Shown piece by piece: positions 980-53,369 of a stretch of DNA of 64,000 nt. The notes below the pieces were generated by a model that saw only the letters and a program-made list of their open reading frames with translations, did not search any database and had not been told where the DNA came from. The number at the start of each line of letters is the position of its first letter. Position 1 is the first letter of the stretch. A program made the translations under genes and the position numbers. The DNA is from Gammaproteobacteria bacterium (GTDB lineage: Bacteria; Pseudomonadota; Gammaproteobacteria; Thiohalospirales; Thiohalospiraceae), in assembly GCA_029883105.1 (NCBI GenBank), contig JAOUJT010000001.1:3035-67034 (forward strand), read 5' to 3'.

Positions 980-1025
980 CTCCTGATCACCTTCGTGGTG
1001 GTTGGGAGTCTAACCTTTATTTTTT
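980..1025 (+). terminator. rho-independent terminator, copy 2 of a tandem pair
   Basis: Near-identical duplicate: CTCCTGATCACC-TTCGT-GGTGGTTGGGAG followed by TTTATTTTTT. Confidence 0.75.
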
Positions 1026-1033
1026 GATTTTAT

Positions 1034-1048
1034 CCCGTTAAATTAACC
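1034..1048 (+). promoter_or_regulatory. class-1 conserved motif CCCGTTAAATTAACC (candidate phage promoter)
   Basis: Same 15-mer at 17594-17608, a one-mismatch copy at 38811-38825, and a 14-mer at 47532-47545. Lies just after the terminators and upstream of the packaging operon. Confidence 0.5.
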
Positions 1049-1378
1049 TAGAATAGGTTCCTTGAAGGGTATATATGGAACATTCCCGTGAGGGATCCTA
1101 GGGAGGGTCTTTAGGGATCCTCTTAGAGATACCTTTAGATACCCTTTTAATACTCCCCTATATTCTATTATTATTAATAGATAACAACAGTGATAGATGA
1201 TCCCCTAAAGGATAGTATAGGGGGATATTTTTCTCCTTCAAAGGGGAGGGCACAGGGGATAATTCAACGGGGTCTTTTTATTCGGAGACTAACACGAACT
1301 CTAAGATTTCCAAGCGCGTCTGGGAGTCAACTTCAAACATTATCCCTCAAAATTCAATTTTAAAGGTATTTACAAGAT

Positions 1379-17587: not shown

Positions 17588-17593
17588 TAGAAC

Positions 17594-17608
17594 CCCGTTA
17601 AATTAACC
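17594..17608 (+). promoter_or_regulatory. class-1 conserved motif CCCGTTAAATTAACC
   Basis: Exact copy of the 1034-1048 15-mer. Lies in the gap between the MuF-RNAP stop and the scaffold gene. Confidence 0.5.
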
Positions 17609-17691
17609 CTGTTATTTAGTGTAACAAGAGTCTTAACAATTAAACGTGTTGCTGTGCGACACATAAATGAGCTGTGCTCAGGAAAAGAAAG

Positions 17692-21446: not shown

Positions 21447-21455
21447 TCAGCCATA

Positions 21456-21483
21456 GGGGATATCTTCGGGTATCCCCTTTTAT
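21456..21483 (+). terminator. rho-independent terminator
   Basis: GGGGATA-TCTTCGGG-TATCCCC followed by TTTTATT. Confidence 0.8.
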
Positions 21484-21499
21484 TAACCATACCAGAGCC

Positions 21500-22823: not shown

Positions 22824-25800
22824 ATGTCAGGTGTTATAGTTGATGTAGATGCCAGAACAGAGAAGGCTGAACGCGACTTACAACAGATAAATAAATCTCT
22901 TAGAGGTATAGAGACTTCAGCAAGTAATGCTGGTAAGACCATTTCACGTGCGTTCGTTGGAATAGGTGCAGCCCTTACAGCTCATTTCTCAGTTTCACAA
23001 GTCAGTGGTATCTCAACCGAATTTACAAATCTGTCCAATCAAATAGCAGTTGTGACAGGTAGAACGCGAGAACTAAACAAGGTCCAGTCCGAGTTGTTCA
23101 ACATTGCTGAGAACACTCGTGCCTCGATCTCTAACACAGTATCTACCTTTGGTAGCCTAGGACGCTCACTGCGAGGTGTTGAATCGTCTAATACTAAAAT
23201 ACTGACGGTTACAAAGGCTATTCAACAAGCAACTGCCCTATCAGGTGCCTCTTCTGAATCCGCGAAAGCTGCCATTGTCCAGTTAGGACAGGGTCTCGCT
23301 GCAGGTGCTCTGAGAGGTCAAGAACTCATGTCTGTCATGGAACAGTTGCCACGTGCTGCTATAGCGATAGCCGACGGATTGGAGGTGCCTCTGGGTGCTC
23401 TGCGCAAGCTGGGCGAGTCCGGTAAATTGACGAGTGAACAAGTTTTTAATGCACTACTTCAACAGTCTGAGAAGATAGGCCAGGAATTCAAAAGCTTAGC
23501 ACCTACTGTTCAGCAGTCAAAGAACCTTCTCACAGACAGCTTAAAAATCTATATAAGTGAGCTTGACAGGGGTATGGGTCTTTCCGATCGAATGGGCAGT
23601 TCCTTGCAAGGGTGGAGTAAAAAGATCAGAGAGGCATCTAAGGGCGCGTATGATCTCGGGAATAGAATTGCGTATAACTTGACTATCTTCAAGCGAGAAA
23701 TCAAACAGTTTGTAGGCCCTTTCGCTAATATAGGTATTGCTATCGCAAAGCAATTTAAGAAGGCCCTCCCGAAGGCGTTTCTGACACTTACATTTGAAGC
23801 GATGTATAGAGATGTCATTCGAGACCTCGATAAGTTTACAGGGGGCTATATAAGTGCTTGGAAACGTTTCAAATTCATCGATATAATAAAGATTGAGAGT
23901 GATGTTGAAATAGCGATAAGAACCCTGAAAAGACTCCATCCTAAATATTGGGCTGCAGGAGGTTTTGATGTACTGTCTCTGAAACATTTCTTTAGCGCCG
24001 AGAATTTAAATCTGTATCTACGTGCCTTACAATCACTTGCTGACGCTATTGAGAGTAACATACGTTCAGCTGCATCAGTTTTTAAGTCTCTTGCCATCAA
24101 CATCAGGTTCGGAACAGAAGCAATGTTGAGGTTTGTAGGCATCATACCCGAATCTCTTGTCATGTTTCGAGTAGGACATTTAAAGCCTTTTCTGAAGACT
24201 GTTATTGAAATTGCACGTGCCATCACAGGTACATCTCTCGAATTCTATAGAGTAGGGCGCTTAATATCGGAAGGTCTGTTTCCAGACATCATCAGTGTCT
24301 TTAGAGCTATGGGCGATATTATGCAGCAACTGTTTGGACGTATTACAAGCAGTTCTCGTCTAGCGAAGGCGATAGGTTACATCAAGACTTTCGCTGACTC
24401 TGTGATGAGGCTCTTTGAGAAAGTCTATATGAGCGTTGTCGGGGGCTCCACATGGACAGATACGATGAAAGGAATTTATGAGAAAGCTCGCTCATTTCTA
24501 GGTAAGACGCGAAAGGCCCTAGCATCTTTCGGAGAGTTTGTAATGACGCAGTTTAAGAAACTTGCTGATAAAAACCTCTGGTCAAAAGTAGGCATAGCAA
24601 TTCATACAGCTATCTTTTCAATAATCCCAGTAGCTGCATGGATTATTAGGAGTGTTATTGATATTGTGACAACATCGATTGTTGCCTCATTAGGAATGAT
24701 AGGATATCTATGGGCTAAAACTTTTAACAGCCTTGCAGAAGTTGCTCCTAAGTCTATCGCTAAAATGATACGTCGTGTAAGAGATTTTGGTCTTGAGCTA
24801 ACTGTGTTATTCGCAGGTGTTGTTATTGCAGTAGGACGTCTTCTTAAGGCTCTTCTCTGGGTTGTAGCTGCTCTAGGTAAACTCTTCGTAATGGGTGCTG
24901 TTTTCTCATTTCATGCTCTTATCTATGAAATCTCACGACTGACAGAGTACCTCCGAGGGGATGCTGTACATGATATCATTGATTTTGGTAAAAAGGTTAT
25001 TGACGTCTTCGCTGAAATCTATGACAAAGTTATAGGTAACTCGTATTGGACTGATCTGATTGAGAATATTGTCAATACTTCAAACAGTCTCTGGGACTCT
25101 GTAAAAGGAGGCTTTTTCAAGTTCTACAATAACATTGTCAGTCTTTTTAAGTCCCTCAATAAAAGAGCTTCACTTCCAACATTCGAATTTAAAAGTTCCG
25201 TCAGTATTCCATTCATCGAGGATAAAAGTCTTCTTACACGAATGAAAGATAGAATACTTGAAATGTACGCTGATGTTGCAGAAAGGTTTCCTACGATGAT
25301 AACAGGTGCCGTTCTCGCCGTCGCCGGTATCGCTGTCTCACTTTTATTTCCAGCAGGTGAGATAAAGAAAGCATTACTGAGCGGTATCTTTCTTGCCCTT
25401 ATAAAGGCCGGTACCTTGATCGCTAGCGCGTTAGGCAAGGGTGTACTAGATGTTAACTTTGTAACGTCGCTGGCCAGGTCTGCAGGTAACGCTGTGGGTA
25501 ACTTCATTGGAGGCATTCTTAGAGACCTCCCTGCTACATTTGACCTCTTGTTAGGCGCTGCCATTAACTTCATCCGTGGTGTCTTTGAAGCAGTCCTTAC
25601 ACAAATTCCAATTTTAGGAACCGCTATTAAGGGTATCTTTGGTATCTTAGATGCAACAGGGACTTCAGGAGTAGCTGGTGTCATAGGGACATTGTTTCTA
25701 GGAAAATATATTGCAAACGTTCTTGGATTCTTTGGCCTCTTTACAACACCTATGGCAAAGATGAAAGGGATCATGGGTAAACTATATACCGTTGTCTCGG

Positions 25801-28800
25801 GTAAAGGGGGAGTTCTTTCCCAGTTGGTCTTCGGTAGACTAGGACCAACAGCTGGTATCGCAATGGTCTTAGGTGTCTTGGATATATTAGGAGCCTTTGA
25901 TACATTATTTGAAGACTCCCCTTTGTTCCACTTAGCAGCACAGGGCGGTATCGTGGCTCTCATGTTAGGAGGTAATGGAGCAATCCAGTATGCGAAAAAC
26001 TTTGCGATTGATAAAATCTTATCACCTATAGGTGACGCACTTCGTAGAGGGGCGATCAATATGGGGTTTGGTCAAATCCTTGCGAATGCGATGGTTACAG
26101 GCCAGGAAGGGTTTGTTGCCTCTACTCTTGCCTTTGTGACATCAGCGATTCAATCAGTAGGTTCCCGAATTGTAAGTTTTGTAGCACCTCTCGCTAGTAA
26201 AACATACGACTATTTACAGATACTGCTGTTAGGTCCTGATCCTGCTGCGACTATCGCAAAAATGAAATTATACCTTATCGCAGCAATGGATTCAGGGAAA
26301 GCACTCTTGAGTGGGATTGGTGCCTTCTTATCGCCTCTATTAGCTAGTATGGGTTCTTTCTTTAAAGGATTAGGAGCACAAGTCTCTGGTTTGTTTTCCC
26401 AAGTGCAGACCGCCAGTGTGAGAGCAGCTTCCACAGCAACAAGTGTCGGTGGTCGTAACGGAATCTTTGGGAGAGTGATCTTCGGAGCTGCCGGTAGAAC
26501 AGGTCTTGTCCTGGCCATCATTGCACTCTTGACACTTTTCAGCTCTTCAGCAAGTGCTGCTGATAAAGAAATTACAAACTTAGCAGGCAATAACCGTATT
26601 GGTCAGGCAGCTTCCTCCTTGAAGCAAGATTGGGAAGATATCCGCGACAACAATCCTCTGGCAGCTGCAGGTATTACAGCTCTAGGTGTGTTTACCACAC
26701 TAGGTGTCTTCCTCGCGTATAAATTTAGACGTGATGTACTGACCTCTATGTTGAGTGCTTTTAACCCTAAAATTGCTTACAACTTCGGCTTTTCAAGTCT
26801 TAAAACAATCGCTAAAATCAAGTCGGCGATGCTGTCCTTGGGCCGTGTTATTGCAACATCTTTTGTTGCTTTTGAAGCAGGTTCTGCTATAGGTGAAGCT
26901 TTTGGAGGAGAAGAAGGAAGTATGATTGGGGGTACCATAGGTGTCCTCATCGCTGAAGGCCTGATACGAGCCTTTGGAGGCACTTTCAAGAAGATCTTTT
27001 CATGGCGGTTAATATGGCCGATTATCACAGGAGCTTTTGCATTTATAGGTAAAGCACTGATAGGTCTTATCTTCTCTAAAATCGCAGCTGTTGTTTCTAT
27101 TGTAGGTATTTTGGGTCTGCTCCTATTCGGAAAGAAAGGAGAGTTCTGGAATGATATTGGAAAGGCAATTCAATGGGTCAAAGAATTAATAGGGCTCAGT
27201 ACAGAGGCTTCTAGAATAGATTCAAAGTCAGGGATTTCAAATGAAGCTCTTGGATTTGCAAACCTCAATCAGATAGATGTCGCTCATTCTTTAGAAGGTA
27301 TCGACTTTGATAAGATAAGTGACCGTCAGACTGAACGACTGGAAGCAAAGCTTAATGAGGTGAATGATGCAATTCTAGAAGCACAAGAGGAAGCTTCATT
27401 TACAAAGGATGGTAAGATTGTTGAAGATACAAAGAAATCTCTTGAGATACTCCTAAAGGGTACAAAGAACTATGTCGACAAACTAACAAGCCAGAGCCTT
27501 CCTAGCTATGATGAAATAGGTGCTGCCTTAGACTCTTTTAAGTTTACAAAGGAAGCAACCCTCTTCGATTCCATCCTCTTAAATTATCGCCAGGGAGCCT
27601 TAGATGTTCTCTATGGCTTAAAAGATGTCGCTATTTCTCTGAAGGGATTACCTGATGATATAGAGAAGCGTGAACGAGCAATTCTTGCAGACTCAAAGCT
27701 CACCAAGTTCAACGCTCGATTCGTTGATGATGATCCAATTCTGAATAGCATTATCAAGGCTCAGAAAGATTTCGGTGAACCAGGTAAAGATGCAAACATC
27801 ACATCTGAAGAAGAACAGAAGTTAGTCGATCTCACAGCAGCATATATACGTAATTTGAAGATTGCTTCAGAAGAACGCATAGGACTGTTTGGGAACCGAC
27901 AGGCATTCAATGTCGAGGCAGATAGTTATAAACAGATGGCCGAAAGCGCTGCTGTTTTAAACTCAGAATTCGCGAAGTTAAAGCGTCTCTCAGATCGCCG
28001 CAATGAAGTAGAAGCCTTCAATAAAGATATCAAGCAGATCAGCAATAATCTCTCACTTATTGGGATTAATATAAAGACCTCTGAACTATTTGCCGAGGAC
28101 TCTGATGCTCTAGACCGTGTACGTATATTAGGGCAGACCGCTCGAGATGTGACAGAGAATCTAAAGAATCTTGCAAGTGTTGAAGAGATGAGAGAATACC
28201 TTATCACACTTTCTAGTGTAAAGAAAGAGCTAGGGGAAATCAAAGAGCGAGCTGAGAATGCAGGTAAGTCAATGCAGACCATTGCTTTACAAAGTCTTGA
28301 GGGTCTAGGCGATAGTCTTTTCTCAGAGGAAACTGTTAGACGTCTTCCTGAAACACTTTCAAAGGCTATTACCGAGCTATCGCGTGAGTATAAGGATAAC
28401 AGTGGATTTCTAGATCTTGAGTTCAGACCGGATGCCGTGAGTACTGCTAAGTTCAGACGAGACACTGAGCTGAAGATGCTCAATCTGAAGAAGTCTATAC
28501 ATGAAATAATGTTAGACCCTTCAAATATAGGTGGTGCCAAAGAGCTTGCCGAAGGTTTGGGTCTTGACTTTGATTCGTTACTCAAGCACAAAGGTATTCC
28601 AGGCATTGTAGACGCTTTGTCAGACGTCCTTGCTCTGCAACACGATATCGATCTTTCAAAACTATTAGGTGATGGTGAAAAATATCGAGACGCCTCTCTA
28701 GCTCTGAAGAAATATATGGAGCTACTGACTAAGGCTCCTCAGACATTAGATACACTCTTGAGCGATTTTAGCACATTGGGTGGTGATCTTAGTGTGGGTG

Positions 28801-30545
28801 ACTTTGTGACTCTAGACTCTAGTACATTGTCTAGGATGCGTGAACTCTCTACAGGTCTCCATGAACTCAATTATGAACTGGCTGAAATGGGTGAGAATTT
28901 TACTTCTGAAGAACTCAAACAGAAAATGGAAGATCGTCTAAACTTAATGGCAGAAGCTTCGAAGTTAAATCTTGAAAACCTGTATACAACACCTCAGCGT
29001 ATTTTAGATGGTCTAGGTCGCGCAGGTATCTCAGATGAGAAGCTTGTAGCGCTTCTTCCAGAAGGTACATTCCGGGAGTTTCTTGCATTAGATACAACTA
29101 TTGAGGACCTACGAGCTAAACTCCAAGACCCTCGCAATGCTGACAGTTTTGAAACTATTGCAAAGCAACTACGAGATGCACTTCTGACTGTTGACTCTCT
29201 TGAAAATAGACTTAAGCATGCGAATTTAAGTATCGCTGATGAGAGAGATACTGTCAATAGTCTCACAAGGTCTGAAACAATTGGAAAGATTACAGAAGTC
29301 TTTCCTCAAATGCAAGGCTTTACAGACTCTCTAAATCAATTACCTCTTACAGATCTTCGAAATCTATTAACATCCTCGCTAGACTTTAAACAAAAGTTCA
29401 GTGATGCTGACTTCGGTGTTGATGAGTTGTCAGCAGAGCAAGAGAAACAAATACGAGATGCCTTTGTCAAGGCGTTTGCGGTGTCACAAGAGGCTTCGAA
29501 TTTTGGTCTTACTGCAAAGAGCCTACTGCTAGATTCAGGAGTGGATTTCAAGGAATCAGCTTACAATCTTGTCACCGAGACTGCTGATAAGCAAATTCAA
29601 CAATTAGCCACCGAACTACGTGATGCAAAAGCTCAACTGAGTGCAGGTGGTAACGCAGCTACTAGAATTGCTGCGCAACAGTTGGTAAATCAAAAGAGTC
29701 GTGAACTTAGTGACGCTCTTGAAGCAGCTACCTACGATGTCAAAGAAGAAGCTTATAAGGCAGGTGGAACGTATTTCGGAAATATAAAGAGTGGATTTCA
29801 GTCAGCCTTTACAGATGGACTTAAAGGAACAAAATCGGAAGAAGCCTCAACGTGGGTAACATTCCGTGACTCTATTCTTGACATGTTTACCTCTAATGTA
29901 ATAGAGACATTCTCTGGCGGCTTTTCTGACTCCATGTTCGCCCCTATAAAAGATTCAATCATGTCAGCAGGTGCTGAACTGTTCTCAGCTGGAAGTGCAG
30001 AAGGTGAAGGTCTTACAGATACATTTGCTGATGGAATGGGTGCTGTATTTTCAAGTATGAAGACAACATTGGCGGATGGGGCATCCAGTATCTATGACTA
30101 TCTGTCTGAGATCGATTGGAGTCAAGTATGGTCAACAGTGACAAGCTTCTTTGGCTTCTCAGGTGGTGGTAGTATTCTCACCGCTGCTACAGGTGGTCGA
30201 TTGGTAGGCCCTGGTACTGGCACTTCTGATTCAATGCTGGCAAGAGTGTCAAATGGTGAATATATCATTAACGCTGCAGCAACACGTCGCAATCTTGACT
30301 TGTTAGAGGCAATTAACAGTGGATCTGTTAGCAGTTATGCTACAGGAGGTCTTGTAGGACCAAATCCAACGATGACTGATAATGCTAGAAAGTCGTCAGT
30401 CAATATTAATAGTAAATCGAAGACATCACAAGTCTTTAATCTTAATGTAACAGGGGATATCTCAAGACAGACCCGTAGTGAGATTGTACAAATGATTCCC
30501 CAAATCGCGCAGGGTGTTGGCGCATATAACAATGAATTCGGATAA
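22824..30545 (+). CDS. tape measure protein (2573 aa)
   Basis: N-terminal tape-measure signature AIVQLGQGLAAGALRGQELMSVMEQLPRAAIAIADGL. Multiple hydrophobic Gly/Ala-rich segments, long coiled coils, position after G/GT. Confidence 0.9.
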   Translation: MSGVIVDVDARTEKAERDLQQINKSLRGIETSASNAGKTISRAFVGIGAALTAHFSVSQVSGISTEFTNLSNQIAVVTGRTRELNKVQSELFNIAENTRASISNTVSTFGSLGRSLRGVESSNTKILTVTKAIQQATALSGASSESAKAAIVQLGQGLAAGALRGQELMSVMEQLPRAAIAIADGLEVPLGALRKLGESGKLTSEQVFNALLQQSEKIGQEFKSLAPTVQQSKNLLTDSLKIYISELDRGMGLSDRMGSSLQGWSKKIREASKGAYDLGNRIAYNLTIFKREIKQFVGPFANIGIAIAKQFKKALPKAFLTLTFEAMYRDVIRDLDKFTGGYISAWKRFKFIDIIKIESDVEIAIRTLKRLHPKYWAAGGFDVLSLKHFFSAENLNLYLRALQSLADAIESNIRSAASVFKSLAINIRFGTEAMLRFVGIIPESLVMFRVGHLKPFLKTVIEIARAITGTSLEFYRVGRLISEGLFPDIISVFRAMGDIMQQLFGRITSSSRLAKAIGYIKTFADSVMRLFEKVYMSVVGGSTWTDTMKGIYEKARSFLGKTRKALASFGEFVMTQFKKLADKNLWSKVGIAIHTAIFSIIPVAAWIIRSVIDIVTTSIVASLGMIGYLWAKTFNSLAEVAPKSIAKMIRRVRDFGLELTVLFAGVVIAVGRLLKALLWVVAALGKLFVMGAVFSFHALIYEISRLTEYLRGDAVHDIIDFGKKVIDVFAEIYDKVIGNSYWTDLIENIVNTSNSLWDSVKGGFFKFYNNIVSLFKSLNKRASLPTFEFKSSVSIPFIEDKSLLTRMKDRILEMYADVAERFPTMITGAVLAVAGIAVSLLFPAGEIKKALLSGIFLALIKAGTLIASALGKGVLDVNFVTSLARSAGNAVGNFIGGILRDLPATFDLLLGAAINFIRGVFEAVLTQIPILGTAIKGIFGILDATGTSGVAGVIGTLFLGKYIANVLGFFGLFTTPMAKMKGIMGKLYTVVSGKGGVLSQLVFGRLGPTAGIAMVLGVLDILGAFDTLFEDSPLFHLAAQGGIVALMLGGNGAIQYAKNFAIDKILSPIGDALRRGAINMGFGQILANAMVTGQEGFVASTLAFVTSAIQSVGSRIVSFVAPLASKTYDYLQILLLGPDPAATIAKMKLYLIAAMDSGKALLSGIGAFLSPLLASMGSFFKGLGAQVSGLFSQVQTASVRAASTATSVGGRNGIFGRVIFGAAGRTGLVLAIIALLTLFSSSASAADKEITNLAGNNRIGQAASSLKQDWEDIRDNNPLAAAGITALGVFTTLGVFLAYKFRRDVLTSMLSAFNPKIAYNFGFSSLKTIAKIKSAMLSLGRVIATSFVAFEAGSAIGEAFGGEEGSMIGGTIGVLIAEGLIRAFGGTFKKIFSWRLIWPIITGAFAFIGKALIGLIFSKIAAVVSIVGILGLLLFGKKGEFWNDIGKAIQWVKELIGLSTEASRIDSKSGISNEALGFANLNQIDVAHSLEGIDFDKISDRQTERLEAKLNEVNDAILEAQEEASFTKDGKIVEDTKKSLEILLKGTKNYVDKLTSQSLPSYDEIGAALDSFKFTKEATLFDSILLNYRQGALDVLYGLKDVAISLKGLPDDIEKRERAILADSKLTKFNARFVDDDPILNSIIKAQKDFGEPGKDANITSEEEQKLVDLTAAYIRNLKIASEERIGLFGNRQAFNVEADSYKQMAESAAVLNSEFAKLKRLSDRRNEVEAFNKDIKQISNNLSLIGINIKTSELFAEDSDALDRVRILGQTARDVTENLKNLASVEEMREYLITLSSVKKELGEIKERAENAGKSMQTIALQSLEGLGDSLFSEETVRRLPETLSKAITELSREYKDNSGFLDLEFRPDAVSTAKFRRDTELKMLNLKKSIHEIMLDPSNIGGAKELAEGLGLDFDSLLKHKGIPGIVDALSDVLALQHDIDLSKLLGDGEKYRDASLALKKYMELLTKAPQTLDTLLSDFSTLGGDLSVGDFVTLDSSTLSRMRELSTGLHELNYELAEMGENFTSEELKQKMEDRLNLMAEASKLNLENLYTTPQRILDGLGRAGISDEKLVALLPEGTFREFLALDTTIEDLRAKLQDPRNADSFETIAKQLRDALLTVDSLENRLKHANLSIADERDTVNSLTRSETIGKITEVFPQMQGFTDSLNQLPLTDLRNLLTSSLDFKQKFSDADFGVDELSAEQEKQIRDAFVKAFAVSQEASNFGLTAKSLLLDSGVDFKESAYNLVTETADKQIQQLATELRDAKAQLSAGGNAATRIAAQQLVNQKSRELSDALEAATYDVKEEAYKAGGTYFGNIKSGFQSAFTDGLKGTKSEEASTWVTFRDSILDMFTSNVIETFSGGFSDSMFAPIKDSIMSAGAELFSAGSAEGEGLTDTFADGMGAVFSSMKTTLADGASSIYDYLSEIDWSQVWSTVTSFFGFSGGGSILTAATGGRLVGPGTGTSDSMLARVSNGEYIINAAATRRNLDLLEAINSGSVSSYATGGLVGPNPTMTDNARKSSVNINSKSKTSQVFNLNVTGDISRQTRSEIVQMIPQIAQGVGAYNNEFG

Positions 30546-30557
30546 TAGAGGATTATT

Positions 30558-31274
30558 ATGTTTGGTATTTTAAATGTAACTGATAACACGAGTGACACAG
30601 GAGACGACAGTCTTTTGAATGCTGTTTTTACAGCGCCTGTGTCAATTAGATCACATCGTATAAGGTCTTCATCTGACACGCTAAGCCTAAAGGTACGGCG
30701 CGCAGAGGGAACAGCTCAGAGATGGGAGTTCCAGACAGGTGCTCACATTATAAATAGCACAGGTCACCATCTCTTCACACAGCGACTCATCCAGGGGATT
30801 TCTAATTCTGTTTACATCAGACCTCCTTTGCCCTTGAAAAAAGAGAGTCACACAGTAGGCCTCCTTCGAAAAAGCTCAGAAGTAGTTCCTTCAGAAGTCT
30901 CTCCTACAGATTCATCAGAGTATGCCTTTTCTGAGGGAACTGCGAAGACAAACGCTGCCTACTCTGCTGCGGCTTCTACTTTTGCGGTGACCTTGGATAT
31001 TTCCTCAAAGATCTTTGAATCTGATTTTATTCGGTTCGCAGGGCATGATAAGCTGTATCTGATCCATAATTTAGCTGTTAATAAAGACACGCATGTGGTT
31101 ACCTTTGCAACAATCCCAGGGCTTGTAGCTCCAGTGGCAAATGCGGAGACAGTCTATCTAGGTAAGAATGCTACAGCAAAGTGTATACTAGATATGGATG
31201 CAGCTTCAGGAATGACTTATGGAGATGGTATTCTTGAAGACCTTGGTAACATAATCCTGGTGGAAGATCTATGA
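30558..31274 (+). CDS. distal tail / minor tail protein (positional)
   Basis: First gene after the tape measure; 238 aa. Confidence 0.45.
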   Translation: MFGILNVTDNTSDTGDDSLLNAVFTAPVSIRSHRIRSSSDTLSLKVRRAEGTAQRWEFQTGAHIINSTGHHLFTQRLIQGISNSVYIRPPLPLKKESHTVGLLRKSSEVVPSEVSPTDSSEYAFSEGTAKTNAAYSAAASTFAVTLDISSKIFESDFIRFAGHDKLYLIHNLAVNKDTHVVTFATIPGLVAPVANAETVYLGKNATAKCILDMDAASGMTYGDGILEDLGNIILVEDL

Positions 31275-38683: not shown

Positions 38684-38810
38684 CACCACGATCTCAGGGT
38701 CACCCTTATGGGAGTGTGCCTGAAAAAACGACAGCAGAGACGGCCAGTCTGGAAGCCGTCCTCAAAAAATCCTTTAGAATCAAGGGGTTAGGGCGGTCGT
38801 CACCTCAGAC

Positions 38811-38825
38811 CCCGTTAAATTATCC
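38811..38825 (+). promoter_or_regulatory. class-1 conserved motif, variant CCCGTTAAATTATCC
   Basis: 14/15 match to the 1034 and 17594 copies, with the flanking C and CTG also shared with 17593-17611. Lies 170 nt upstream of the holin gene. Confidence 0.45.
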
Positions 38826-38994
38826 CTGTAGGCTCCCCCGTAATGTAGTATTTATAACTCCCTATCACCACTGTTGTAAATCTATAACAATAAAGGATTA
38901 AAGAATAGAATAAGGATATCCCCTCAAGACCTTCTCTAAAGAGGTCACTCAATAGTCCCTAGGGCTAACTAAAATATAAATAAAGAGGTATATC

Positions 38995-39899: not shown

Positions 39900-39944
39900 A
39901 ACTGCGCAAAAATGGGTATCTTATATGAATAGGAATAATCCTAT
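39900..39944 (+). promoter_or_regulatory. class-3 conserved element, copy 2
   Basis: AACTGCGCAAAAATGGGTATCTTATATGAATAGGAATAATCCTAT. 65/71 nt identical to copy 3 when counted through the start codon. Confidence 0.55.
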
Positions 39945-40315: not shown

Positions 40316-40360
40316 AACTGCGCAAAAACAGGTATCTTATATGAATAGGAATAATCCTAT
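40316..40360 (+). promoter_or_regulatory. class-3 conserved element, copy 3
   Basis: AACTGCGCAAAAACAGGTATCTTATATGAATAGGAATAATCCTAT, with the same spacing to the start codon as copy 2. Confidence 0.55.
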
Positions 40361-45343: not shown

Positions 45344-45363
45344 CATGCCGGAATCGTAACCGG
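45344..45363 (+). promoter_or_regulatory. class-2 conserved motif (CATGCCGGAATCGTAACCGG)
   Basis: One of four intergenic copies of AT(G/C)CCGGA-N3/4-GTAACCG. Lies 38 nt upstream of the next start codon. Confidence 0.5.
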
Positions 45364-46097: not shown

Positions 46098-48103
46098 TGT
46101 TCAGACTGGTTTTTGATATTGAAGGCGATGGGTTCCTAAGAGATGTAACACGGATGTGGACGATCATTATCCATAACTTAACCACAGGCGAGCGCGTGGA
46201 ATTCCTTGAGAATGACCTAGGCTGGCAGGATTATTTTAATAATAATGTGGGGATTGTAGTTGGGCATAACATTTTAGGATATGATGTTCCTGTCCTAGAA
46301 AAACTCTTTGGGTATAAATTCCCAAAAGAAACTCAATTTCATGACACGCTTTTGATGTCACAGATTCTTGACTACCGGCGATTCGGCTACCAAGGGCACT
46401 CACTAGCGGTGTGGGGTAAATCACTAAATTATCCAAAAATTGACTTCCACGACTTCTCAAAATGGACTCCTGAGATGTCTAAGTATTGTCACCAAGACGT
46501 AAATCTTAACGTTGAGGTGTATAAAATTCTAATACAAGAATATTATGATTTGTTTGACAAACTTGAGAAAGATGAGGGAACAGGTCATAGAATAAAAACA
46601 TTTCTTCAGGCTGAACATGCTGCCACTACTTGGCAAGCTCAGGCTGAATTGCACGGCTGGCCCTTCGACAAAGAAGGAGCTATTGAACTCTTCGGTAAGT
46701 TAGAGGAGGAACTGACTGAAATTCGGGATAAATTAGAAGGAGTCTTAGGCTCAAAGTCAATTGCAATCGACAAGGTAAAAGGAATTGTGCCTCACAAAGA
46801 ACCTAAGTGGGTTGCTACAGGGTACTATCATGCACATACTGCGCAGTGGTTTGGTATCGATCCTCGCTGCGGTTCTGATCTTTCTACAAAAGAGGCTCGT
46901 ATGATCATAGCCTCCGGCGAATATGAGGAGGAAGATGAAATAATGAAGATGGCTCAGGCTATCCTGACGCATGGTGAGCGACCGATTACAGGCCCGTATT
47001 GTAGAGTAGACTTCCAGAAACTAAAGTTAAGCTCTGTCGCAGATGTTAAAATTTATCTATATCGACATGGATGGGAACCCTCCGAATGGAACACTAAATG
47101 GAATCCTGCTACTAAAAAGAATGAAAACACTTCACCTAAAATCATTGATGACGATCTCGATCTTTTAGGCGAAAACGGAAGGTTGTATCGAGCCTTTACA
47201 ACAGCAGAATCTCGATACAGTATAGTAAAAACATGGATTGAAAACGTTGATGACAATGGAATGCTTCATGGAAACTCAAGGATGATAGGAACGCCGAGTA
47301 TGCGCGCTACACACCAGATCATTGTAAATGTACCCTCTGGAGAGCTTAAGGATGATGGAACTCCTGTTAGTAAATGGGGTCCTGAGATGAGAGCCTTGTT
47401 TAGGTCAAAGCCAGGCTGGAAATGCATAGGATGTGATTCAAAAGGCAACCAGGCGCGAGGTCTCGCACACTATCTAGGAGATCAGGAGTTTATAGACGTA
47501 ATCCTGCACGGTGATATTCATGCATACAACGCCGTTAAATTAACCGAAGCATTGTCGAAGATGGGTGTACAGCACACGGTACCAAGAAGTGCCGCAAAGA
47601 GAATCCTGTATGCCTTCCTATTTGGAGCTTCAGGTAAGAAGCTGTGGAGCTATATATTTGGCACCTTCAATGCAACTAAAGGAAATAAGTTAAAAAAGGA
47701 GTTTATTAAAGCAGTACCTGGGTTTGAAGACCTTAACAAAAAGCTGGAGAATATCTATGGAAGCACCTCAAAGTTTGGATACGGCTACATTCCTTCAATG
47801 GTTGGTAATAGAATTTATGTTGATTCTTTTCATAAACTTCTTGTATATTTACTACAATCCCTTGAAAAGATTACATGTAGCACTGCGGTTATGCTCACTA
47901 TGCAGCGTCTGGAGGAAGAAAGTATTCCATACATCCCTCTCATCTACTATCATGATGAGGAGGATTTCATGGTACCAGAAGAATTTGCAGAACGTGCAGC
48001 TGAAATAGGTTCAGGCGCCTTCAAGGATGCGGCGCTCCTATATGATATCAAAATAATGGATGGTGATGCAAAGATCGGCGACAGCTGGCTAGATATTCAT
48101 TAA
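46097..48103 (+). CDS. family A DNA polymerase with 3'-5' exonuclease domain
   Basis: Exo motifs FDIEGDGF, GHNILGYDVPVL, YCHQDVNL. Polymerase motifs CDSKGNQARGLAH (A), RSAAKRILYAFLFGAS (B), YYHDEEDF (C). Confidence 0.9.
   Translation: MFRLVFDIEGDGFLRDVTRMWTIIIHNLTTGERVEFLENDLGWQDYFNNNVGIVVGHNILGYDVPVLEKLFGYKFPKETQFHDTLLMSQILDYRRFGYQGHSLAVWGKSLNYPKIDFHDFSKWTPEMSKYCHQDVNLNVEVYKILIQEYYDLFDKLEKDEGTGHRIKTFLQAEHAATTWQAQAELHGWPFDKEGAIELFGKLEEELTEIRDKLEGVLGSKSIAIDKVKGIVPHKEPKWVATGYYHAHTAQWFGIDPRCGSDLSTKEARMIIASGEYEEEDEIMKMAQAILTHGERPITGPYCRVDFQKLKLSSVADVKIYLYRHGWEPSEWNTKWNPATKKNENTSPKIIDDDLDLLGENGRLYRAFTTAESRYSIVKTWIENVDDNGMLHGNSRMIGTPSMRATHQIIVNVPSGELKDDGTPVSKWGPEMRALFRSKPGWKCIGCDSKGNQARGLAHYLGDQEFIDVILHGDIHAYNAVKLTEALSKMGVQHTVPRSAAKRILYAFLFGASGKKLWSYIFGTFNATKGNKLKKEFIKAVPGFEDLNKKLENIYGSTSKFGYGYIPSMVGNRIYVDSFHKLLVYLLQSLEKITCSTAVMLTMQRLEEESIPYIPLIYYHDEEDFMVPEEFAERAAEIGSGAFKDAALLYDIKIMDGDAKIGDSWLDIH
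47532..47545 (+). promoter_or_regulatory. intragenic copy of the class-1 motif (CCGTTAAATTAACC)
   Basis: Exact 14-mer of the intergenic class-1 motif, inside the DNA polymerase ORF in the same orientation. Confidence 0.3.
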
Positions 48104-48454: not shown

Positions 48455-48488
48455 CTATCGCTAGCAACGATGCCGGAAAAGTAACCGT
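48455..48488 (+). promoter_or_regulatory. class-2 conserved motif, extended form (CTATCGCTAGCAACGATGCCGGAAAAGTAACCGT)
   Basis: 30/34 identical to 53336-53369. The core is shared with 45344 and 48668. Confidence 0.55.
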
Positions 48489-48667: not shown

Positions 48668-48687
48668 ATCCCGGATAACGTAACCGG
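48668..48687 (+). promoter_or_regulatory. class-2 conserved motif (ATCCCGGATAACGTAACCGG)
   Basis: Core motif with a one-nt longer spacer. Lies 36 nt upstream of the 48723 start codon. Confidence 0.5.
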
Positions 48688-53335: not shown

Positions 53336-53369
53336 CTATCGCTCGCATCGATCCCGGAAAAGTAACCGG
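53336..53369 (+). promoter_or_regulatory. class-2 conserved motif, extended form (CTATCGCTCGCATCGATCCCGGAAAAGTAACCGG)
   Basis: 30/34 identical to 48455-48488. Lies in a 366-nt non-coding gap. Confidence 0.55.

Follow-up and report, generated by a model that had tools for sequence, protein, structure and literature searches.

An almost invariant intergenic motif is a candidate promoter for the T7-like RNA polymerase of an uncultivated phage family

The intergenic 15-mer CCCGTTAAATTAACC, hereafter the class-1 motif, is a real sequence element that is almost invariant across a large family of uncultivated phages. Its full consensus, RAM-CCCGTTAAATTAACC-CW, spans 20 nucleotides (nt). We analyzed the motif in a stretch of 64 kb (the window, 64,000 nt) of the 74.2-kb contig JAOUJT010000001.1, whose genes identify it as phage DNA. 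The contig was deposited in a gammaproteobacterial metagenome-assembled genome (proteins MDH5182264.1 and MDH5182252.1) and looks like a complete 74-kb phage genome. The class-1 motif is very probably a promoter for a phage-encoded RNA polymerase (RNAP). We also think it probable, with somewhat less confidence, that it is the middle/late promoter of the 757-amino-acid (aa) T7-like RNAP that is encoded in the same window (Table 1). Promoter function, the polymerase that reads the motif and the position of the transcription start are what we infer from sequence comparison.

A preliminary description of the window had named three copies of the motif and read them as a late promoter for one of two phage RNAPs or as another strand-specific signal at operon starts. 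All three copies are where they were reported. Copies 1 and 2 carry the exact 15-mer and copy 3 carries CCCGTTAAATTATCC, which differs by one base; the flanks C...CTG are common to copies 2 and 3. The three copies are intergenic. Copy 1 lies past two tandem terminators, as described, at a distance of 8 nt, and 330 nt ahead of the terS-like open reading frame (ORF) 1379. Copy 2 lies 6 nt past the stop codon of a gene for a second RNAP, which is fused to a MuF domain (the MuF-RNAP), and 83 nt ahead of the scaffold ATG (17692). The preliminary identification of these neighbors holds: MuF and RNA_pol domains are found in the first gene, the scaffold gene product matches phrog_206 and the capsid has homologues among annotated major head proteins. 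Copy 3 lies 169 nt ahead of ORF 38995, and the endolysin-like ORF 39528 is also downstream. Here the support for the earlier label "holin-endolysin" is weak: the 109-aa ORF weakly matches endolysin families, and the 178-aa ORF has no known function.

The list of three copies was incomplete. Three further matches had been overlooked: within the DNA polymerase ORF there is a copy with one mismatch, on the minus strand there is one with two, and a degenerate remnant has three (Table 1). Because CCCGTTGAATTATCC lies on the minus strand, the statement that all copies are in plus orientation is true for the three named copies and not strictly true for the window. In the DNA polymerase ORF, the 13 relatives compared have other residues and other bases at the site of the copy. 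Hence, we do not list this copy among the established promoters. It could be an internal promoter that this lineage gained recently, or a match by rare coincidence. At the site of the remnant, a relative (L116) has a terminator followed by an exact class-1 motif. The 8 kb upstream of the window, which encode a peptide deformylase and an adenylosuccinate synthetase, contain no further class-1 copies.

The number of copies is far above chance. Allowing up to three mismatches, the 15-mer matches the window seven times, compared to 1.1 ± 1.0 times in shuffles of the window (none of 100 shuffles reached seven). The relaxed core CGTTNNNTTAWCC has five matches versus 0.16 in shuffles. For copies with at most one mismatch, four are seen and about 0.006 are expected by simple arithmetic over the 128 kb of both strands.

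The motif is also conserved far beyond the window. A scan of IMG/VR for the exact 15-mer found at least 119 loci, most of which align to the window at about 65–70% DNA identity; counts for these motif-selected loci are counts among the matches listed. The control 15-mer CCCGTTAAATTATCC, with one base different, is found in 27 single-copy loci, one of which belongs to a relative. Within 1 Mb of motif-selected loci there are 156 exact copies, one copy with one mismatch and two copies with two mismatches. When 20 diverse relatives are aligned, the motif stands out with 100% identity beside MuF-RNAP coding sequence that has a mean identity of 63%. The conserved block consists of R-A-M, the 15-mer and C-W, and nothing is conserved outside these 20 nt. 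Wherever orientation could be assigned, the exact copies run with the genes (123 of 123).

These loci had been chosen by the motif itself. Hence, we repeated the analysis on loci that were fetched by capsid homology alone. For 43 usable loci we recorded the best plus-strand match at the site between the MuF-RNAP and scaffold genes. The match is exact in 13 loci, has one mismatch in five and three mismatches in three. All 21 motif-bearing loci carry the motif on the plus strand only and keep CGTT-NNN-TTAACCC. Thus the motif is kept at syntenic positions in dozens of relatives, and the strand bias reappears in this unbiased set (13 to 0). Every computational test that the preliminary description had named as a possible refutation came out in favor of a promoter or a strand-specific signal at operon starts.

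Some lineages carry variants of the motif. The class-1 sequence RAMCCCGTTAAATTAACCCW spans CCGTT, a central AAA and TTAACCC. Among the relatives we find the variants CGTTAGATT, CGTTAACTT and CGTTTTCTT. EBPR siphovirus 1, one of the nearest records to the window phage (52% identity in the capsid, 64% in the MuF-RNAP), has its own forms: TCCGTTGAATTAACC, ACCGTTACATTAACC ahead of terS and ACCGTTATTTTAACC after the MuF-RNAP gene, all with the same core. Because the variants in the capsid-selected loci and in EBPR siphovirus 1 keep it, the essential core appears to be CCGTT-N3-TTAACCC, in which the central triplet is free.

We sorted the exact copies in relatives by their neighboring genes. Most of the sorted copies (76) lie between the MuF-RNAP and scaffold genes; 16 lie ahead of the terS homologue, 21 ahead of the gene for the single-stranded DNA-binding protein (SSB), five ahead of lysis-region genes (including those in L024, L060 and L091) and one ahead of the homologue of ORF 21500, where the window has the remnant. 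Exact copies thus recur at all three sites of the preliminary description, so these sites are syntenically conserved. The copies ahead of the SSB and replication genes in relatives mean that the motif is not purely late, and in this respect the preliminary reading was too narrow. The distance to the start codon can be short: in two relatives (L116 and L007) the motif ends 25–31 nt ahead of it.

The position of the motif relative to the T7-like RNAP gene points to the polymerase that may read it. The SSB-site copies in relatives come right after this gene. We could read the order of elements in 19 relatives whose locus includes the RNAP gene. In these loci a second conserved motif, TATCTTATATGAA (class 3), lies 0.9–3.8 kb upstream of the RNAP gene in 11 of 11 cases. 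Class-1 copies are never found between the class-3 copies and the end of the RNAP gene. Sixteen class-1 copies lie 0.3–3.0 kb downstream of the RNAP gene, and the remaining five, further upstream, stand ahead of the lysis genes, where the late region ends. This layout matches that of T7: the polymerase gene stands under a foreign promoter class, and the polymerase's own promoters begin right after the gene. Because of this placement, we propose the 757-aa enzyme as the reader of the class-1 motif. Furthermore, there are two promoter-like classes and two phage polymerases, which suggests a one-to-one assignment of class 3 to the injected MuF-RNAP or the host enzyme and of class 1 to the 757-aa enzyme.

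The 757-aa RNAP is catalytically intact. All of its catalytic motifs are present; counterparts of D537, K631, Y639 and H811-D812 are retained, and so is the C-terminal foot. Relatives have enzymes that are 52–64% identical to it. It lacks the AT-rich recognition loop of the T7 and T3 enzymes and has a specificity loop that is 12 aa longer. This is a property of the whole family: compared to the RNAPs of T7, T3, Syn5 and the roseophage DSS3_VP1 (NC_055826, Naomviridae; L121/L122), the family's T7-like RNAPs lack the AT-rich recognition loop and share a conserved 12-aa insertion, approximately G+VKKIWVQYGPP, in the specificity-loop region. Among relatives with the class-1 motif this region is well conserved. 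The one contrast is DSS3_VP1, in which the region is different (34% identity) and so is the motif. The start site could not be placed by aligning the specificity loop with those of T7 and T3, because the 12-aa insertion allows no residue-by-residue alignment.

In the programme that we propose, the early genes, including the RNAP gene, would be transcribed from class 3 by the injected MuF-RNAP or by the host enzyme. The newly made 757-aa RNAP would then bind the asymmetric class-1 sequence as duplex DNA and melt its A/T center. RNA synthesis would begin within or just after TTAACCC, most likely at an A residue. From copy 1 a long rightward operon would be transcribed with the packaging, portal and MuF-RNAP genes, from copy 2 another long rightward operon with the scaffold, capsid and tail genes and from copy 3 a rightward operon with the lysis genes. 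Many transcripts would start with a short stabilizing hairpin, often using the motif's CCC. Hairpins directly 3' of the motif are enriched (39% with ΔG ≤ −5 kcal/mol versus 13% in shuffles). As many of them use the CCC, this part of the motif would be transcribed. The hairpins, the short leaders and the likeness to motifs of DSS3_VP1 and Syn5 (see below) together suggest a start inside or just after TTAACCC.

Several observations weigh against the class-1 motif as a promoter of the 757-aa enzyme. The choice of this enzyme over the MuF-RNAP comes from gene order and analogy. A start at T, A or C is unusual for the T7-like enzyme family, and the motif has neither the CACTA core nor the +1 GGG of T7-group promoters. 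The scaffold site is without the motif (at least four mismatches) in 22 of the 43 capsid-selected loci; where the MuF-RNAP stop codon could be located in such loci, a short intergenic region with no such element follows. In the window itself, the replication genes are preceded by another motif (class 2) instead of class 1, and the copy at 1257-1271 is the sole window copy that faces against the genes. Finally, the inner 11 bp of the motif, GTTAA-A-TTAAC, form a perfect palindrome, which is not required of a pure polymerase promoter.

The class-1 motif may also be more than a promoter, although we give this extension a rather low probability. Some copies belong to what we call type A modules: the motif is followed after about 8–10 nt by a run of five to six C and then by a 100–200 nt A+T-rich stretch. 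Both type A modules of the window contain the ATTATCC variant and a downstream block ctatcac..ctgttgt; the minus-strand copy is followed by its C-run and A+T-rich module as copy 3 is. In relatives (e.g., L002, L056, L073, L096 and L248) a second, plain copy usually lies about 80–210 nt downstream. The window module ahead of terS is inverted compared to its counterparts in relatives, and in L248 both variant forms stand ahead of terS in plus orientation. Type A copies could be transcription-activated origins of a T7-like replisome in a long-tailed phage, in either orientation. Such a role would be an addition to promoter function and not an alternative, because the function of the T7 origin depends on the element being a promoter. 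Alternatively, the 15-mer may be read by both polymerases or by an extra factor; its invariance is near absolute despite an RNAP identity of only 52–64%.

Among the rival explanations, the one that survives best is a promoter read by the MuF-RNAP, either freshly made late in infection or injected. The MuF-RNAP is presumably carried in the virion. It gives the phage a second, very divergent RNAP domain; its RNA_pol match is weak, and a sequence search with its C-terminal part against solved structures found no match. Copy 2 stands directly behind its gene, and enzyme and motif are found together throughout the family and in EBPR siphovirus 1. However, an injected enzyme should serve early genes, and the genes behind the class-1 motif are those for packaging, head and lysis; the early region has no class-1 copy and a conserved motif of another kind. 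The MuF-RNAP gene itself sits in a motif-headed operon. In addition, class 1 resumes shortly after the gene for the 757-aa RNAP, which is the classic signature of that gene's product. We therefore consider the MuF-RNAP an unlikely reader. As a separate observation, the MuF-RNAP homologue of EBPR siphovirus 1 (25771-31144) is annotated as gp47 and gp49 with an HNH endonuclease gene, gp48, between them. An insertion of the homing-endonuclease or intron type into the gene for the virion polymerase would account for this arrangement.

A role at the level of RNA or in DNA metabolism is quite improbable for the class-1 motif; examples would be a signal for the processing or stability of long transcripts, a nick or primase site with strand specificity, or a component of an origin. 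The hairpins that follow the motif would suit such a role. So would the type A copies (copy 3, the minus-strand copy and those of many relatives) with their C-run and A+T-rich region in either orientation, an arrangement that resembles the promoter and A+T-rich primary origin of T7/T3. Yet copy 1 directly follows two strong terminators, where new initiation is needed. An invariant single-stranded RNA signal of 20 nt would be atypical, and nick or primase sites would not be restricted to intergenic operon starts.

The palindrome and the small number of copies per genome, placed at operon starts, also bring to mind an operator. A dimeric regulator, a late activator or repressor, would bind GTTAA-A-TTAAC and the promoter would lie elsewhere. 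We rate this as very improbable, the least likely of these rivals: the conserved flanks are asymmetric (RAMCCC versus CCCW), the orientation is 100% fixed among the matches listed and the functional-looking variants GTTGAATTATC, GTTACATTAAC and GTTTTCTTAAC break the palindrome. Furthermore, there are no conserved promoter boxes nearby, and sigma-70-like sites are at chance level. They stayed at shuffle level in all three scans, a result confined to the sigma-70 type; another type of host promoter may be present.

Other candidates fail on simple grounds. No second conserved box stands beside the 20-nt block in relatives, and since nothing is conserved beyond these 20 nt a two-box host promoter does not fit. 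This rejects a sigma-70 promoter, which needs two hexamers 16–18 bp apart, as well as an extracytoplasmic-function sigma factor or sigma-54 promoter. A pac or cos site does not agree with several copies per genome, a nick site does not agree with the confinement to operon starts, and a T4-type late promoter is rejected because the motif does not match TATAAATA and the phage encodes an RNAP. Single-subunit polymerases, in turn, use just such a single, compact recognition element.

The window has two other motif classes. Class 3, itself invariant, recurs in relatives (L013, L024, L072, L074, L088, L091, L099, L110 and L111). There it is confined to the region upstream of the T7-like RNAP gene and stands ahead of small genes whose leaders are very short; in the window, the hairpin ATAGGAataaTCCTAT comes next. 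We regard class 3 as a candidate early promoter that the injected MuF-RNAP may read. Class 2, CCGGnnnnGTAACCG, has the form CCGG-N4/5-GTAACCG, and its CCGG arms can pair (4–6 bp). It shares CCG...A..TAACC with class 1 and has a G at the position aligned with the predicted start. One possible reading of class 2 is a weaker "middle" form of the class-1 promoter. When IMG/VR was scanned for the class-2 15-mer, all matches were single-copy and unrelated; among the relatives, class 2 is found only in L018 (7020).

Table 1. Motifs, polymerase genes and associated elements in the window.
Feature	Position	Strand	Remarks
Tandem terminators, hairpin and T-run	931-976 and 980-1025	+	close the preceding transcription unit before copy 1
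Class-1 copy 1, exact 15-mer	1034-1048	+	flanks tat...ta, off-consensus
Type A module ahead of terS	1049-1271	-	
Class-1 two-mismatch copy CCCGTTGAATTATCC	1257-1271	-	same intergenic region as copy 1
MuF-fused RNAP, 1539 aa	12968-17587	+	Phage_Mu_F 4.9e-13 (N-terminal); RNA_pol 1.4e-8 (weak)
Class-1 copy 2, full consensus AAC-CCCGTTAAATTAACC-CT	17591-17610 (15-mer 17594-17608)	+	
Scaffold-leader hairpin 1	17646-17662		
Scaffold-leader hairpin 2	17669-17679		
Class-1 degenerate remnant CCCCTTTTATTAACC, three mismatches	21474-21488	+	overlaps terminator 21455-21478, ahead of ORF 21500
Class-3 early-region motif TATCTTATATGAA	37801-37813, 39917-39929, 40333-40345	+	preceded by (t/c)GCGGAAAA-like sequence
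Class-1 copy 3, GAC-CCCGTTAAATTATCC-CT, A13T one-mismatch variant	38808-38827 (15-mer 38811-38825)	+	in type A module
Type A module of copy 3	38808-38994	+	
T7-like single-subunit RNAP, 757 aa	41530-43803	+	Pfam RNA_pol 1.5e-67; T7 RNAP structures 4e-46
Class-2 motif CCGGnnnnGTAACCG	45348-45362, 48473-48487, 48671-48686, 53354-53368	+	ahead of replication-module genes
Class-1 one-mismatch copy GCCGTTAAATTAACC	47531-47545	+	inside DNA polymerase ORF, codons N-A-V-K-L-T

The gene content of the window is that of a long-tailed phage with a T7-like replication module. All ORFs are on the plus strand. The structural genes comprise terminase, portal, scaffold, capsid and tail fibers; the TerL label given earlier is borne out, too. 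A 2573-aa ORF occupies the tape-measure position, and the structural module is of the long-tailed (siphovirus) type. The T7-like replication genes encode SSB, a family A DNA polymerase, a primase-helicase, an exonuclease and a ligase. A near-identity DNA search of the phage collection gave no match, leaving the phage without a close cultured relative; besides EBPR siphovirus 1, the nearest records are the roseophages DSS3_VP1 and DSS3_PM1. The terminator unit before copy 1 measures 46 nt, is tandemly duplicated (85% identical, 49-nt spacing) and ends the replication/auxiliary gene block. Scanning the whole window for Rfam families and tRNAs gave no match, so there is no known RNA family in its intergenic regions.

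Two hairpins lie in the 5' leader of the scaffold gene, and yTGTr is the core common to their loops. The stems of hairpin 1 covary, and its loop reads invariantly ATTGTAT in 31 of 35 unique relatives; the window has GCTGTGC instead. Hairpin 2 reads GAGTTGTACTC in relatives and GAGCTGTGCTC in the window, and it abuts the ribosome-binding site. The two loops change together (relatives L002-L119, L272-L319). This type of hairpin is kept in relatives without the promoter motif and in DSS3_VP1 (gtaaGTTGTACttac, L121 at about 25680). It looks like a deeply conserved putative RNA operator for a translational regulator of scaffold/capsid synthesis.

For many phage single-subunit RNAPs no promoter is known; a recent survey obtained no prediction for 741 of 1757 phage genomes with such polymerases (PMC11880802). 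The class-1 motif provides a candidate promoter consensus for a widespread and entirely uncultivated family, to which EBPR siphovirus 1 belongs and whose sister lineage is the Naomviridae. Together with the early motif, it suggests a host-independent programme of two polymerases, one of them delivered as a MuF fusion, in which each polymerase may be served by a separate promoter class. Synthetic biology could use the short invariant motif and the 757-aa polymerase as a new orthogonal pair for transcription. The result is solid as well as useful, and it is conceptually expected for a phage with a T7-like RNAP.

The closest model for the proposed promoter is found in T7 and T3. As in these phages, there is an intact T7-like RNAP and there are short, asymmetric, near-identical and co-oriented intergenic copies of one sequence. 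Within the early unit no copy precedes the RNAP gene, and the first one stands shortly after it; one copy comes after terminators, and transcripts are predicted to begin with a hairpin. The features of a T7-type promoter that can be tested by computation (an intact polymerase, copies of this kind and their position after the RNAP gene) are thus present. Our literature search found no published description of the class-1 sequence and no published work on transcription in this phage family. Hence, we place the motif as a candidate new promoter consensus, of a known promoter type, for an uncharacterized branch of T7-like RNAPs.

The sequence itself differs from known T7-group promoters. Their consensus (TAATACGACTCACTATAGGGAGA type) has CACTA at −7 to −3, A/T at −4 to −1 and GGG from +1; class 1 has no TATA or TAAA followed by GGG, and nothing is conserved downstream of its CCC. 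The preliminary description had seen no similarity to the T7 consensus. This was too strong, since the 3' half of class 1, ATTAACCCT, is common to T3 promoters, where it is identical to positions −16 to −8, but the CACTA core and the GGG are indeed absent. The match to T3 is probably a coincidence, because it leaves CCGTT unexplained and the needed conserved downstream part is absent. Aligned on this match, the block of about 20 nt would extend upstream to where T7 RNAP makes no contacts. Further differences lie in the two loops of the enzyme described above, in the small number of copies (about 3–6 per 70–78 kb genome) and in the long tail of the phage.

The cyanophage Syn5 offers a second comparison. 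Its smaller T7-like RNAP uses a 15-bp promoter defined by experiment, ATTGGGCACCCGTAA followed by G(+1), and accepts A or C as first nucleotide with 36% and 52% yield (PMC3950665). A start at a base other than G is therefore plausible in the window phage. Class 1 shares CCCGT(T)AA with the Syn5 promoter, where it stands directly before the start site, but the upstream half of that promoter, ATTGGGCA, is absent. The RNAP of the window is no closer to Syn5 RNAP than to T7 RNAP (27–33% identity, partial alignments), which rules out closer RNAP kinship as the cause of the resemblance. Hence, the resemblance is only a lead and may be due to chance.

DSS3_VP1 belongs to the sister lineage and has the same pair of RNAPs and the same gene order. 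It carries a motif of its own, ATAGGGTGCGTTAAAGAGGGGGA, in the form ATAGG(G/T)(T/G)(G/A)CGTTAAAG(A/C)GGGGG. About 14 copies are present, all intergenic and on the plus strand, and many are followed by a hairpin. The motif shares the CGTTAAA core with class 1 and looks like a T3/T7 promoter that ends in TAAA followed by G. It differs from class 1 upstream (ATAGGGTG versus RAMCC) and downstream (GAGGGGG versus TTAACCC). We propose ATAGGGTGCGTTAAAGAGGGGGA as a T3/Syn5-like candidate promoter for the Naomviridae RNAP; our literature search did not find it described, and the published description of DSS3_VP1 makes no mention of an RNA polymerase. For none of the likenesses of class 1 to T3, DSS3_VP1 and Syn5 could homology be demonstrated.

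A comparable division of labor is seen in coliphage N4, in which a virion RNAP uses hairpin promoters for the early genes and a second phage RNAP transcribes the middle genes (PMC4496689). The class-1 motif is not such a hairpin promoter: it is not a GC-rich hairpin of 5–7 bp with a 3-nt loop, it does not stand at early genes and its A/T palindrome comprises only 4–5 bp and is lost in variants. The virion enzyme of the window phage differs from that of N4 in its fusion to a MuF head-protein domain, and the late genes appear to use a phage RNAP instead of the host enzyme. What the two phages have in common is a pair of phage-encoded T7-family polymerases, one of which is delivered by the virion, and separate promoter classes for successive sets of genes.

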